This document shows positions 38,354 to 43,498 of a stretch of 64,000 nucleotides of DNA, piece by piece; the stretch's first letter is position 1, and each line of letters opens with the position of its first letter. A model generated the notes under the pieces. That model searched no databases and had not been told where the DNA came from. It saw only the letters and a list, made by a program, of their open reading frames with translations. The stretch comes from a virus (taxonomy: Duplodnaviria; Caudoviricetes): the IMG/VR virus record IMGVR_UViG_3300035208_008180. The stretch is one strand, 5' to 3'. The position numbers were made by a program, and so were the translations under genes.

Positions 38354-38575
38354 TTAAATATCATCACATATATCTTTATAGCATTCCTTGCATAACCAAA
38401 CCTTACGCTTCGCCTCTGGACTGTCTGGATATATCTCGGCAGCAAATGGGTTTGGTCCATATATCATCCTATCTGCAACGTGTATTTTGTTACAAGAACC
38501 ACAACAATGTGTATTCTTGCCTTTGGCAAGTTGTACTGCCTCTTTACGCTTTCTCTTCGATAATATCTTGGTCAT
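38354..38575 (-). CDS. small zinc-binding protein
   Basis: CCGSC...NPFAAEI...LCKECY...DI. Confidence 0.65.
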   Translation of the reverse strand: MTKILSKRKRKEAVQLAKGKNTHCCGSCNKIHVADRMIYGPNPFAAEIYPDSPEAKRKVWLCKECYKDICDDI

Positions 38576-38975
38576 TGCTAAGAATTTCCTTCATAGAAAT
38601 GGGACAACAATACGATGAAGATTCATATGAAAACGACCAGGGAATATACTCAAAACCGTAATCTGAATCTGGTTCGTGCATCGGCGGGGGCATCTTTACA
38701 TCATTAAATTTCCAATATTCCATAAGCTCATTATTACCGCCATAGAGCCTTATTTCGGCTGACGTTACGAACGACACAACATCTTGATTAAATTCTTCGA
38801 AAACACAAAATTGCATAGTTCCACTAATGGGAACAATCTTGCCGCCATTTTCATCCCCAACTGCCATATAGGGAAACGCCGGTCGTTCTTCCGGCCTAAT
38901 AATAATTTCTGGAATTATTATTTTTCCATCAGCATTCTTTCCCTCAAACATCCATCGCCATTTTCTTTTTAACAT
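38544..38975 (-). CDS. tail-tube (gp19-like) related protein, divergent
   Basis: LKRKWRW.F...IP...RP...LYG...MEYW.F...FSYE pattern of huge-phage tube proteins. Confidence 0.4.
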   Translation of the reverse strand: MLKRKWRWMFEGKNADGKIIIPEIIIRPEERPAFPYMAVGDENGGKIVPISGTMQFCVFEEFNQDVVSFVTSAEIRLYGGNNELMEYWKFNDVKMPPPMHEPDSDYGFEYIPWSFSYESSSYCCPISMKEILSNDQDIIEEKA

Positions 38976-38982
38976 TTTTTCC

Positions 38983-39294
38983 TCATATCCCTGCTAGACC
39001 AACCTTGTGATCGAATCCAAGTATCACTTCAACCCTGGTTTGGATTTCTCGGATGGAATGGCCAAGTAAGTGATAACCCTTGTGTTCTAATTCGTCCTGA
39101 GTTTTCTCCCAATCCAACCTGCGTTTTTTCTCATGTGGCAGCGGCTCCACAGGAAGATCATTGTCAGCACAAATCTGTCGAACCATTTCTTCATGAAACC
39201 GTTCCCAAAAAAGATTATATTTTGCTCTCCAAACAGAATAACGCACCTTTTGGCCACGATAAGCACAACGCTCTTTGTTCTTGACTTTCCTCAT
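38983..39294 (-). CDS. hypothetical protein
   Basis: 103 aa ORF. Confidence 0.55.
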   Translation of the reverse strand: MRKVKNKERCAYRGQKVRYSVWRAKYNLFWERFHEEMVRQICADNDLPVEPLPHEKKRRLDWEKTQDELEHKGYHLLGHSIREIQTRVEVILGFDHKVGLAGI

Positions 39295-40589
39295 TTCACT
39301 ACTTTCAACTGATTGAGATTTCTACCTCTATAGGCTTTAACCCGCAATCTTAAACCAGGATACAACCCATCCTCTTCCTCTAAAATGTCTTTACACAAAT
39401 TTAAAACATTTATTTCTTGCCCCACATTTGGAATTATATAATATCCATCGTGAACATGAAAGCTAATTCTTGCAATTCCCTGAATAATTTTATGTAATTT
39501 CACCAATTTGTGTAAACAAATAACAGATGCTGGGGCCTGGATGTGGAAGTTTCTTAGTTGTGTGCGATAATATTCTTCTTCAAATAAACGATTTCGCCCA
39601 TAGTAATCAATTGCCCTATTATCTTTTACGTCCTTGTTGTTCAACCAGCCCATAGCTATGGGAAACTTTTTATAAATTCGACTAATAATGGTTTTTGCCG
39701 TTTCCTCAGCTACATCATTTTTCTTGGCTAAAGTAGCCGCACCCATGCCAAATGCCACAGGCAAAAAGAACCCTTTGCACACCTTTCGCCGTGATGGAGA
39801 ACATTCGAGCCCGGTTATGGTTTCCCAAATAGACTCATACACATCTCGACTACGATTTAAGATATTGCCTAACAAAGTGTCTTTGGATAGCCATTGCAAC
39901 ACGGAAACTTCCATATTTTTGAAGTCGAAATACAAAAAATCCTTGCTATCGAAATCAGGAGTGGTTAAAAATTGCTTCTCAGATTCTTCAAGGGTATGTG
40001 GATTGAAGGACTTATTAAAAGCATCCCTGCACTTCATTCGACCATTCTTCTGCCCCTCAATCTCATAATAGGGATGTAAAATAGCCTTTTGATCGGTATG
40101 TGCCAATCCCAAGGTTTCAATCCGAGGAAGAACCTCTCGAATCAATGGAGTATATATGGTTTTATATATGGTTTTTGTCTGCTCCCAACTAGAATTACCA
40201 ACAACCCTTGCCAATCGCCCTTTGGCTTGATTAAAACTACCAGGACAGGGCTCAGAATGCCCCAGGAATGCCTCAATTAGCTTTAAATCAACGATTGATG
40301 CCGATATGCTCAATTCCTTGCCCGTAATTGCTAAAATAAAACTAAACAAATTCTTGGCATTCCAGGCAATCAACACCTTGGACTGATCTAAATAATACTT
40401 TAGCTCGCCAATAATATTAATAAGTTCCGCTGGCTTATGGCTTAAAGGAATATCCATCCTTTTATTCGGAGCCATAATTACAAGGGTAGCGGGTGCCTTT
40501 GGATTGGTAAAATCCAATACTTCGGGAGAAGTGGCAACAAAAAGGGTTTGACCAACAAGAGACTCTAGAGTTTCTGCCAATTCCGACAT
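39291..40589 (-). CDS. Family A DNA polymerase, polymerase domain only (divergent)
   Basis: NGRM, motif A YFDFKNMEV, motif B RKVCKGFFLPVAFGMG, NFHIQ, motif C VHDG. Confidence 0.8.
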   Translation of the reverse strand: MSELAETLESLVGQTLFVATSPEVLDFTNPKAPATLVIMAPNKRMDIPLSHKPAELINIIGELKYYLDQSKVLIAWNAKNLFSFILAITGKELSISASIVDLKLIEAFLGHSEPCPGSFNQAKGRLARVVGNSSWEQTKTIYKTIYTPLIREVLPRIETLGLAHTDQKAILHPYYEIEGQKNGRMKCRDAFNKSFNPHTLEESEKQFLTTPDFDSKDFLYFDFKNMEVSVLQWLSKDTLLGNILNRSRDVYESIWETITGLECSPSRRKVCKGFFLPVAFGMGAATLAKKNDVAEETAKTIISRIYKKFPIAMGWLNNKDVKDNRAIDYYGRNRLFEEEYYRTQLRNFHIQAPASVICLHKLVKLHKIIQGIARISFHVHDGYYIIPNVGQEINVLNLCKDILEEEDGLYPGLRLRVKAYRGRNLNQLKVVK

Positions 40590-40622: not shown

Positions 40623-42278
40623 CTAATCCTCAAAATCACCAAACTTTGTGCCAAACTTCTCGCCATGTTTTTTGAAAAACTCTTCCCTTTGTTTGATATT
40701 ATCGAGAACCCTCTTTAATTCTTCCCCATAATACTTTTGATTTAATAAATCCAACCAATCCTTTTCCTCTATGAATTTTAAGGTCTCTTGGGGTTTGGCC
40801 TTATAACATCTACTCAGAAAGTGATGTAAATTCTCGGCGGCGGGCTCTTTATACATCATTTCCAACATTTTTTCTGGCTGTTTTTCTGTTTTCCCGTAAT
40901 TACCATCATAACAATCAAAGACTTTGCGACGATTGTCGTTGTCGGGAGCATCCTCATATAATTTAAGTACGTCGTTCCAACCCTTCTGTCCAGCCAAATA
41001 AATAAATTTTTCTTTTACCAAGTAATAAGGATCAAAACTTCCTTTGGCTGTGGGGTGGAAAATTTTGGACAACTTCTCCGCAATCATTTTTACAGTTGGC
41101 TCTAATTCCTTATTGGTATAGCCACCTGCCTTCCATTTCGCTTCCGCTTCTTCATAACCTGGATCGTTGTATCTGGTTTTGCGAAATTCCCTATATCGAG
41201 TGTAGAATCTATCGAACAAAACTTCAGTATTGCGAAGTTTTAAAATAGGCTCCTTGGCGGTCAACACCATGTTGATTGTGGCATGTAAATCATTGAAATC
41301 CTCTCCCTCCACCTCAGTTCCATCTTTTTCCCAATCCTGTAGCCCACCATTCACAAATGAATTAAACAACTTTGGATCAAGTTCTCCTGTAAGTGCTTTT
41401 TTCGGAACCTTGAAATGAAAGGTGTTTTTTAGGGTGTTAGCGTCAGCCACCATCATTTCTTCTGGGGTCATGCTCTTATGCCCGCCACGGTTCGACATTG
41501 TATCAGAGATATTATACCAACCACCTTGTGGACCATTGGGACCAAAATTAGTGGGGACTGTTCCTAAAAGCAAATAAGCAACGTCAGAGGGATTGTAGAT
41601 ATGCCCCTTCTTCCAATTATCCATCACATAATCAACCCGCTCTTTTTCGTGCTCCCCAGTCAAAACTTTTAGATCACTTTGACGAATTGGGGCTCCTCCA
41701 GCACCGATACTAATAACAGGGTCTTCATCATCTTGACCTCCTTGCTGTGCCCCATAGGAAGAGAGAGGATTGGGTTTAATGGGGTCTACATAAATTCTGG
41801 ATTTATCGTGGTCAACGTAGGTAACTTTCCAATAGGGTGTCATATTTAAAGCATGATCGCCTACCTTGTCGCCTATTTGGACATCTTCTAAATTGTTGAT
41901 AGAACCAGGGTCATCTGCCCAATCATAATAATAACCCTCGATGTTGTCTTGCTTCACATTCCCAAACTTAAGTTGCCAAATACCATAGTGGGCTTTAATT
42001 TGTTGTCCTAATACCATTTTCCCAATATAAACCCGGCCTCTTTGTTGATCTATTCTTTCCACCTGAAATCGACCATCTGGACGTTCGATAGGGGTTTTTA
42101 TTTTAATTTTGGCCAGTTCATCAATCGCACCACCAGCTTGTTGAAAATCGATGTAGTAATCCCCATTCTCATCGTTTTGGATTTGTCCCCATTTCAACAA
42201 GAGGAAAGAAGGCCAAGGTCTTTTTCTTTGAGCCTCATTCAACAACAATAAATTAAAATCAAAAAAGTTCACAAACAT
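40623..42278 (-). CDS. hypothetical protein (551 aa), possible virion protein
   Basis: Long ORF; weak tag-like N-terminus MFVNFFDFNLLLLNE. Confidence 0.75.
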   Translation of the reverse strand: MFVNFFDFNLLLLNEAQRKRPWPSFLLLKWGQIQNDENGDYYIDFQQAGGAIDELAKIKIKTPIERPDGRFQVERIDQQRGRVYIGKMVLGQQIKAHYGIWQLKFGNVKQDNIEGYYYDWADDPGSINNLEDVQIGDKVGDHALNMTPYWKVTYVDHDKSRIYVDPIKPNPLSSYGAQQGGQDDEDPVISIGAGGAPIRQSDLKVLTGEHEKERVDYVMDNWKKGHIYNPSDVAYLLLGTVPTNFGPNGPQGGWYNISDTMSNRGGHKSMTPEEMMVADANTLKNTFHFKVPKKALTGELDPKLFNSFVNGGLQDWEKDGTEVEGEDFNDLHATINMVLTAKEPILKLRNTEVLFDRFYTRYREFRKTRYNDPGYEEAEAKWKAGGYTNKELEPTVKMIAEKLSKIFHPTAKGSFDPYYLVKEKFIYLAGQKGWNDVLKLYEDAPDNDNRRKVFDCYDGNYGKTEKQPEKMLEMMYKEPAAENLHHFLSRCYKAKPQETLKFIEEKDWLDLLNQKYYGEELKRVLDNIKQREEFFKKHGEKFGTKFGDFED

Positions 42279-42334
42279 ATGTAGCCAAAAAGCCTTTCAT
42301 TTTTATTGTTGTTTATTTGTTTTATTATATATTA

Positions 42335-42740
42335 TGGCTTTCCCTTTAGGGGGAAATAAGTACTTAAGTAACTTACTAGACCCTAAAAGTTTTTATACTT
42401 GTGGCTAAACGTAACAGAGTCACCTTTGGCACCCCTTTTCAGGGGTAAAGCCTTATGGGTTCAGGCTGCCTTTAACGGTTCTCTCGCTTTTCACGTTTTC
42501 CCCGCCCCTATTCATAAGCTTAGGGGCAAGCGTGACCGGCAATAGGCAGACTTTTGACCTGCCTATCGTATACCACTTCTGGTATAGACGTAAATACCCA
42601 GCCATTTAACATGCATCCCAATTTCTGTAGGAATGCAAGGACGGATCAATACCGCCCCGTTGCCCGGTAGAGATTTACGTTTAGGTCCACAAATATTTTT
42701 CTGTTTAAATTGTAGTTCTTTCACGGGGTGACCGTGAATT
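42335..42740 (-). ncRNA. candidate ~400-nt highly structured ncRNA (or origin)
   Basis: ORF-free, about 10 hairpins, long-range stem 42399-42414 with 42675-42692, promoter at 42747-42775. Confidence 0.6.
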
Positions 42741-42746
42741 GGTTAT

Positions 42747-42775
42747 AATATAGTTTATCGCTTTTCAGGAGTCAA
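42747..42775 (-). promoter_or_regulatory. sigma70-like promoter TTGACT-N17-TATATT
   Basis: Motifs and spacing read directly; points into the structured region. Confidence 0.6.
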
Positions 42776-42823
42776 CTAGATTTTTCTATTTCATGTTTTT
42801 TATGAATGGTATATAATACTGCC

Positions 42824-43498
42824 ATGAACAACTCCCGTCTAGAAGCTGTGTTAAAATACAAGATGACAAAACTCGAAGCATTGGCATTTCGGGTAGCATT
42901 GTTATGGGAGGAAGTTTCCCAAAAGGAATTTCCCAATGAACATTTTGTAAAATTGCGAATAAAAGGTGATCCTCGTAAGTCACTATTGTTTAAATATTGT
43001 TACACACTGGTCCGACAAACGCAAGGTCTTTTACAGCCCAAGGAGTATCGATTTTACATCCTGGCACAACTTCAATTAATGGCAAAAATGGGGAATGGCG
43101 AAGTTCACGCTCTGCTGGAGCCCTGTATTTTGGTTGGACCAAAAGCATGGATACGTTGGACTTGGTGGAAAAGTAAATATGAAAAAAATATGAGGCTATT
43201 AACCACCAATACAGAGGATTTGAAACTAACTCCGCAAATAGAAAATATTCAAAGGGATTTATTAAAAACCAAGAAATTTTTGGGCGATCCTTCAAAAGAG
43301 CAAGTACAACAATGGTTGGAAGAAAAAAAATTGCAAGAATGGATAACCACCAGTAAAATATCGCCTTATTACATATTGCTACACCCTTTGGTGATTGAGT
43401 GCTTATCTGGACAGTCGATCAATCAAGTGTTTGAAAGAGATTTGAGCATTTATAAAATTTCTGATGAAATAAAATCATTATTCTACACTATATTTTAG
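42824..43498 (+). CDS. hypothetical protein
   Basis: 224 aa; divergent from the ncRNA candidate. Confidence 0.75.
   Translation: MNNSRLEAVLKYKMTKLEALAFRVALLWEEVSQKEFPNEHFVKLRIKGDPRKSLLFKYCYTLVRQTQGLLQPKEYRFYILAQLQLMAKMGNGEVHALLEPCILVGPKAWIRWTWWKSKYEKNMRLLTTNTEDLKLTPQIENIQRDLLKTKKFLGDPSKEQVQQWLEEKKLQEWITTSKISPYYILLHPLVIECLSGQSINQVFERDLSIYKISDEIKSLFYTIF

Follow-up and report, generated by a model that had tools for sequence, protein, structure and literature searches.

RNAs that are both large and intricately folded are rare; several of the earlier examples proved to be ribozymes, guide RNAs or self-assembling particles. ColE1 RNA II, in turn, is a folded primer that is extended by Pol I, and unrelated RNA families upstream of one gene are a known pattern of cis-regulatory leaders. 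Here we describe a phage locus whose putative RNA resembles GOLLD, ROOL, OLE, raiA and HEARO in its multi-branched fold of several hundred nucleotides, its conserved junctions and loops and its obscure function. The locus lies within a 64,000-nucleotide stretch of DNA that we analysed as a whole (the window). Overall, positions 42290-42740 of its minus strand are best explained as a structured non-coding RNA (ncRNA) gene of ~400-450 nt, giving rise to a separate RNA associated with the replication module, a reading to which we assign a probability of roughly 60%.

A strand-specific fold beside the replication genes

A sequence-only reading of the window had singled out a hairpin-dense, ORF-free region as a candidate novel large ncRNA. 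All stems that it named are present at the positions it gave: 42720-38, 42542-66, 42569-86, 42504-27 (nested in CACG/CGTG), 42431-46, 42449-67 and 42612-37, as well as a long-range stem pairing 42399-42414 with 42675-42692, which extends to 20 bp on the minus strand through G·U pairs. As it had also observed, the region is more GC-rich (0.475-0.495) than its two flanks (0.29 and 0.35), and it contains only ORFs of ≤53 aa, none of them conserved in the homologue L104 described below. When the 441 nt delimited by that reading were folded, the minus strand reached z = -6.72, versus z = -3.55 for the plus strand. Restricting the analysis to the 306-nt core (42393-42698) gave -124.1 kcal/mol for the minus strand, where shuffled sequences averaged -87.0 (z = -7.05); 0 of 100 shuffles matched this stability, and the minimum free energy structure was close to the centroid structure. 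The plus strand of the core yielded -100.7 kcal/mol (z = -3.99). The minus strand alone offers eleven G·U pairs and a GAAA tetraloop, and the core is more stable on this strand because such G·U pairs extend five helices, the closing stem included. Within the two-sequence alignment of the window and L104, ~11 % of the paired cells are G·U, several of them conserved.

The region had further been credited with its own promoter, TTGACT-N17-TATATT. This site is indeed present, and conserved in L104, but its strand had to be corrected: it runs from 42775 to 42747 on the minus strand, so transcription of the RNA proceeds towards lower window coordinates, as does that of the gene P0001 and the polymerase gene polA (Table 1). 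It fits the promoter consensus at 10 of 12 positions, with a predicted transcription start at ~42740, and is the single occurrence of its type in 64 kb, where 0.06 are expected by chance. A recurrent 'phage-type' promoter motif, ATGGTATATAATA, was rejected as a candidate, its five occurrences versus 2.8 expected not amounting to over-representation. Downstream of P0001, the minus strand carries the PolA-like gene and a DnaB/KaiC-like ATPase gene.

Table 1. Predicted parts of the RNA, in 5' to 3' order on the minus strand, and the surrounding genes (window coordinates)
Feature	Position	Strand	Description
Gap holding the RNA	42279-42805		527 nt, between P0001 (-) and divergent P0002 (+)
Sigma-70-type promoter	42747-42775	-	-35 TTGACT 42775-42770, 17-nt spacer, -10 TATATT 42752-42747
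5' hairpin H0	42720-42738	-	UUCACGG/CCGUGAA, 7 bp, 5-nt loop
RNA core	42393-42698	-	Five-way junction closed by P1
Closing stem P1	42675-42696 with 42395-42414	-	20 bp, 2-nt bulge, G·U-extended; encloses 302-nt core
Domain A	42595-42669	-	Three-way junction; hairpins 42638-42658 and 42612-42637
Hairpin B	42569-42586	-	UAUACCA-GAAG-UGGUAUA; 7 nt shorter in L104
Hairpin C	42541-42567	-	10-11 bp, UCAAAAG loop invariant
Domain D	42486-42540	-	UCACG/CGUGA stem and 10-bp hairpin, CUUAU conserved in loop
Domain E	42416-42484	-	Three-way junction, invariant GAACCCAUA loop, GAAA tetraloop
3' hairpin T1	42343-42389	-	CUUUUAGGG ... CCCUAAAGG; apical part differs in L104
T2	42288-42342	-	GAAAGCC ... GGCUUUU pairing, then U's; weak, 41-nt AU-rich loop
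P0001	40623-42278	-	551 aa; directly downstream of the RNA, outside the RNA unit
PolA-like polymerase	39291-40589	-	432 aa; PF00476, 8e-16
P0002	42806-43498	+	230 aa; divergent gene, conserved huge-phage family

The base of domain A and its flanking junction strands are nearly invariant (AAUCUCUACCGGGCAACGGGG; GGCUGGGNAUUUACGUCU). At this base, RNAalifold prefers an alternative long-range CCGG/CCGG pairing, both strands of which are invariant. Complementarity between the arms 42585-95 and 42673-83 is 91 %. In the switch suggested by the sequence-only reading, ACGTAAAT (42588-95) would compete with the closing stem for 42673-80; the strands involved are identical in the window and L104, which speaks neither for nor against it. 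A tetraloop-receptor motif (CCUAAG...UAUG) considered for domain D is not kept in the L104 alignment and was discarded. The A1 loop contains a self-complementary GAUC, through which the RNA might multimerise. At the other end of the RNA, T2 stops 10 nt short of the P0001 start codon. A terminator consensus scan did not call T2, which could serve as the 3' end of the transcript or as an attenuator.

A homologue with compensatory changes

The homologue L104, reached through P0002-family loci and then closer PolA relatives, is a 3.4-kb JGI metagenomic contig whose PolA is 64 % identical to that of the window and in which polA and the start of a P0002-like gene are 621 nt apart. A single-sequence model of the window RNA (R1) matched L104:282-586 on the polA strand with 192.8 bits (E 1.5e-59). 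According to the model alignment, 20 of 99 pairs are altered on both sides yet still paired, a further 8 of 99 differ by a one-sided change that creates or removes a G·U pair, and 95.4 % of cells are paired, the covariation counts representing one pairwise comparison (two sequences) in an alignment partly fitted to the structure. None of 500 shuffles reached the observed pairing and covariation values, and control alignments with the 3' partners slid by 1-3 columns retained only 1-2 double changes. RNAalifold, applied to an independent MAFFT alignment, recovered most helices (the outer part of P1, both A hairpins, B, C, D and all of E) and 19 compensatory pairs.

Substitutions are concentrated in the helices, and junctions and loops are almost invariant, as exemplified by 21 consecutive identical nucleotides where P1 meets domain A, by the UCAAAAG and GAACCCAUA loops and by GUUAAAGGC. 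Hairpin C alone shows double-sided changes in four pairs and one-sided changes in three. Indels between the window and L104 measure 7 nt; domain E of L104 carries an additional 7-nt mini-hairpin. No ORF is common to the window RNA region and L104, and both the indel length and this lack of an ORF argue against a coding role. Nucleotide identity is only slightly higher in the core (71 %) than in the polA coding sequence (66 %).

Elements outside the core recur in L104 as well. Both promoter hexamers and their 17-nt spacing are identical, with a diverged spacer sequence, and a 7-bp hairpin of unrelated sequence (CUCGGGG/CCCCGAG) takes the position of H0 after the -10 box. T1 and T2 are both present, T2 being a tighter hairpin there that is followed by U6. 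Directly after the RNA comes polA, without P0001; ~95 nt lie between T2 and polA, and a TGcTATAAT extended -10 box lies 6 nt before the ATG. A third, nearer relative, the 22,988-bp contig ENA ERZ1426851, has the same gene order as the window (P0001 93 %, polA 91 %) and a 525-nt gap.

The covariation sought in homologues was hence observed in one related phage. Given a fold and promoter that are kept in L104, and no match in Rfam (see below), the novel ncRNA proposed by the sequence-only reading is very probably a real, conserved RNA representing a new family.

Known families and distribution of the RNA

No match to Rfam 15 was obtained for the whole window at gathering thresholds. A permissive search of 42200-42900 returned four hits only (E 0.35-8.4), all far below gathering, so that the covariance models gave no credible hit at E up to 10. 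Weak Rfam hits in L104 differ from those in the window, leaving nothing consistent between the two. ARAGORN detected no tRNA or tmRNA and the Rfam RNase P models did not match, in agreement with the initial impression that hallmarks of RNase P, tmRNA and group I introns were missing. A group I intron was rejected on two further grounds, as RF00028 gave no hit and the RNA is intergenic between divergent genes, its upstream neighbour being on the other strand. Regarding guide RNAs of the IscB/IsrB/TnpB/HEARO type, P0001 showed no Pfam or PHROG match; regarding riboswitches and leaders, competing 3' hairpins are present and the gene that follows the RNA is not the same in the two phages. No account of an RNA of this kind was found in the literature.

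Neither the region nor P0001 had a BLAST match among 50,697 phage records. No homologue was found in 60 relatives of the MAG to which the window's contig is assigned, a comparison that is uninformative for a mis-binned phage contig, and R1 detected no paralogue in the assembly. Neither R1 nor a two-sequence model (R3) matched any of 78 IMG/VR loci, and exact-pattern scans of the conserved blocks in IMG/VR, JGI metagenomes and GTDB genomes produced chance matches only, all of which were rejected by the models. The RNA is absent in L024, whose PolA is 60 % identical, and in L190 and L192 (46-47 %). Since close PolA relatives do without it, the RNA is dispensable for the polymerase. As no further homologues were found, the RNA family looks lineage-restricted.

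Directly upstream of polA, L024, L025 and L192 encode a ~400-aa protein with the N-terminus YLYNP... (L024:4271-5470, L025:2289-3485, L192:2225-3439). These proteins, which replace the RNA, had no Pfam match and no homologue in the window's assembly; in L024, a GIY-YIG homing-endonuclease gene is located between the gene for this protein and polA. The IMG/VR loci with the nearest polA (40-44 %) have a slot of ~540-700 nt that is ORF-free or nearly so (L032:2804-3500, L030:2911-3500, L027:2959-3500, L026:2817-3500), and these intervals matched neither RNA model. L030 and L032 have a common GAAACC(A/C)UC(C/U)CC(U)AAAAA motif, possibly the sign of a third element.

Another RNA family upstream of polA

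Many P0002/polA loci contain intervals of 540-1000 nt that lack ORFs. Four founding loci, all on minus strands (L083:2781-3026, L099:2864-3102, L101:3083-3321, L102:3096-3338), have a common core of ~240 nt with 21 of 58 pairs compensatory. The model built from them, R2, identified, among the loci searched, 12 more instances at E ≤ 0.0031 (10 distinct sequences) and two weaker ones; these 12 IMG/VR loci include L047, L079, L082, L085, L076, L098, L044, L074, L075 and L070. All instances share the strand of polA and precede that gene by 210-390 nt. In a set of 20 distinct sequences, 55 of the 58 pairs are altered on both sides, and 92 % of cells are paired. The R2 RNA is multi-branched, measures ~250 nt and has a 5' ACUGAGAUGG motif. 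A sigma-70-like site is often found upstream, and one cluster of loci has a 5' hairpin as well as a downstream hairpin that is followed by U7. Conservation goes on downstream of the modelled part, with a GTTTAAAC-like motif. The R2 family has no match in Rfam, and searching the whole assembly of the window with R2 gave no credible hit.

The possibility that the window RNA is a diverged R2 member was rejected, its best score being 3.6 bits with filters off and the 5' ACUGAGAUGG motif being absent; R1 and R3 likewise failed to match the R2 loci. Both RNAs are found in the same slot and on the same strand between polA and a P0002-like gene, with a promoter-like site upstream, whereas their helix layouts differ. 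One and the same genomic slot is apparently occupied by two unrelated families.

Neighbouring genes and the contig

Metagenomic huge-phage contigs contain 66 homologues of P0001, whose upstream gaps measure 0-193 nt and whose gene contexts are unrelated; the RNA model matched none of these gaps. Short gaps, varied contexts and the missing RNA rule out a guide-RNA/effector relation. A role of the RNA as guide or partner of P0001 was accordingly rejected from both sides, as L104 has the RNA without P0001 and the homologues have P0001 without the RNA. Neither L104 nor any of the 78 P0002/polA loci has P0001, whose homologues, ~40 % identical and aligning over ~60-84 % of its length, are scattered over unrelated contexts in other huge phages. 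Judged by this pattern, P0001 behaves like a mobile or shuffled gene. With polA directly after the RNA in L104, P0001 would have been inserted in the window lineage (or lost in L104).

On sequence evidence, polA is the gene to which the RNA slot is linked across phages. Divergent synteny of polA and a P0002-like gene was observed in ~70 of the 78 IMG/VR loci, which stem from a scan of IMG/VR with the P0002-family alignment. The P0002 family comprises 211 representatives of ~225 aa with the invariant residues D55, P56, W115, R117, W118 and W121; the L024 member is 59 % identical to P0002. NCBI calls P0002 as a 224-aa protein, and its true start is probably at 42824. This start follows a TATAAT box by 6 nt, and the P0002 mRNA may therefore be leaderless. 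The structure of P0002 is confidently predicted as an all-alpha fold (pLDDT 91), and the model had no match in the PDB.

The window corresponds to positions 160001-224000 of contig C200, and its parent MAG has 252 contigs. C200 measures 340 kb, has 40.5 % GC versus 65 % GC overall in the rest of the assembly, and carries tRNA clusters; the top similarity of its PolA (36 %) is to LR756511.1, an uncultured 595-kb phage. Based on the GC contrast, the tRNA clusters and the proximity of its PolA to that of a huge phage, we read C200 as a huge-phage contig wrongly binned into a high-GC MAG. The main contigs of the MAG have ~70 % GC, and besides C200 it holds ~0.7 Mb of further low-GC contigs (C137, C226, C242, C44 and others), which look like mis-binned huge-phage or foreign DNA. 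Because the bin contains mis-binned contigs, inferring the host from it is unsafe. In a composition-corrected scan, the most over-stable 300-nt segments of C200 were found at 38401-38850, 334051-334650, 246901-247350 and 273751-274200. All four stretches are outside the window, match only tRNAs in Rfam and may be further RNA genes; the first two adjoin tRNA clusters yet reach past the tRNAs.

Separate RNA or regulatory leader

In our preferred reading, host RNA polymerase would produce an early transcript from the sigma-70-type promoter. This transcript would consist of the 5' hairpin, the core with its five-way junction and the two 3' hairpins, and would end at the T2 hairpin and its U-run, remaining distinct from the downstream mRNA. 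The folded RNA would then act together with the replication module, as a protein-binding scaffold or as a catalytic or sensor RNA. We propose this specific course, an early transcript that ends at T2 and functions as a folded RNA, tentatively and at slightly below even odds. A separate transcription unit is favoured because the gene downstream differs (P0001 in the window, polA in L104), because the terminator-like T2 of L104 is followed by an extended -10 box before polA, and because the R2 analogue looks like a self-contained gene. In the window, T2 is weak and its end is separated from the P0001 start by 10 nt, which makes read-through into the operon plausible.

Such read-through is central to the alternative that survives best, in which the RNA is a cis-acting 5' leader of the leftward replication operon, that is, a riboswitch-like, protein-binding or antitermination element. 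Whether transcription from the early promoter continues into P0001/polA would then depend on the competing hairpins (T1, alternative and T2). The RNA does lie on the same strand as a co-directional gene array of ~13 kb and directly upstream of it, but the first gene behind it is not the same in the two phages. Likewise, T2 is weak and abuts the start codon of P0001 in the window, whereas L104 leaves ~95 nt between T2 and polA and places the TGcTATAAT box before the ATG. Switching would be well served by the segment CCCC(C/A)UAAAGGGAAAGCC, which can enter three mutually exclusive pairings and is conserved at 19 of 20 positions, and two unrelated RNA families upstream of the same gene are what cis-regulatory leaders show. 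However, a 300-nt five-way junction far exceeds known protein-binding operators, and relatives express polA without the RNA. Taken together, we consider a leader unlikely.

Another reading would make the RNA a working partner of the minimal, exonuclease-less PolA-like enzyme, be it as primer, template or specificity subunit. Huge phages would, on this reading, keep a dedicated folded-RNA gene upstream of polA, drawn from at least two unrelated families. We regard this proposal as quite unlikely; if true, it would imply that huge phages have a step in DNA replication or repair that depends on RNA and has no described counterpart.

Also quite unlikely, in our view, is an origin-associated primer RNA like ColE1 RNA II, which would create an R-loop within the AT-rich stretch just downstream (42279-42335) and be extended by the exonuclease-less PolA-like enzyme. 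The arrangement of the locus, with a promoter, a structured RNA and then a stretch of ~80 % AT within a replication module, is suggestive of this, as are the nearby family-A polymerase and DnaB-like helicase, the constant position of the R2-family slot immediately upstream of polA (210-390 nt) and the precedent of RNA II as a folded primer for Pol I. An origin had also been entertained from the sequence alone, with GC skew as the check, but the cumulative GC skew, taken along all 340 kb of the contig, has no inflection at the locus. Neither iterons nor repeat arrays were found, relatives lack the RNA, and a primer would not need a tertiary fold as elaborate as the one indicated by the conserved loops and junctions.

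That the locus has no RNA function at all, being a decaying gene remnant, a cluster of DNA-level palindromes or a chance fold, would suit the very narrow family but is very unlikely in view of the strand-specific G·U pairs, z = -7, the 20 double compensatory changes versus 1-2 in the slid controls of the two-sequence alignment, the promoter conserved in L104 and the missing conserved ORF.

Together, these findings point to a new large folded RNA, backed by compensatory evolution, whose place upstream of a minimal family-A polymerase is fixed, and to a second, apparently unrelated family with very strong covariation that holds the same slot in sister lineages. They provide RNA biologists with two concrete candidates whose replication context is testable, and suggest that the replication modules of huge phages hide RNA genes missed by annotation pipelines.

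Comparison with known systems

Among structured RNAs located 5' of replication or early operons, the T4 gene 43 and gene 32 operators and HK022 put are comparable in position. They measure 20-80 nt, however, whereas the window RNA is built around a 300-nt five-way junction, and unlike them the RNA of L104 has its own apparent end before the polymerase gene. ColE1 RNA II is closer in size: it too is a promoter-driven, folded RNA of hundreds of nucleotides beside an AT-rich stretch, with a family-A polymerase in the system. In contrast to ColE1, no antisense RNA I-like partner was found at the window RNA, and GC skew gave no evidence of an origin.

The window RNA further resembles the GOLLD/ROOL group in being phage-encoded and GC-richer than its surroundings. 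The Rfam models of GOLLD, ROOL, OLE, raiA and HEARO all failed to match it, with E values of up to 10 allowed. It also differs from the GOLLD/ROOL group in its smaller size (~300-nt core), in its occurrence, so far, on only two or three huge-phage contigs and in its fixed slot upstream of a PolA-like gene. The RNA is new within the kind of large structured phage RNAs, and its distribution is narrow.
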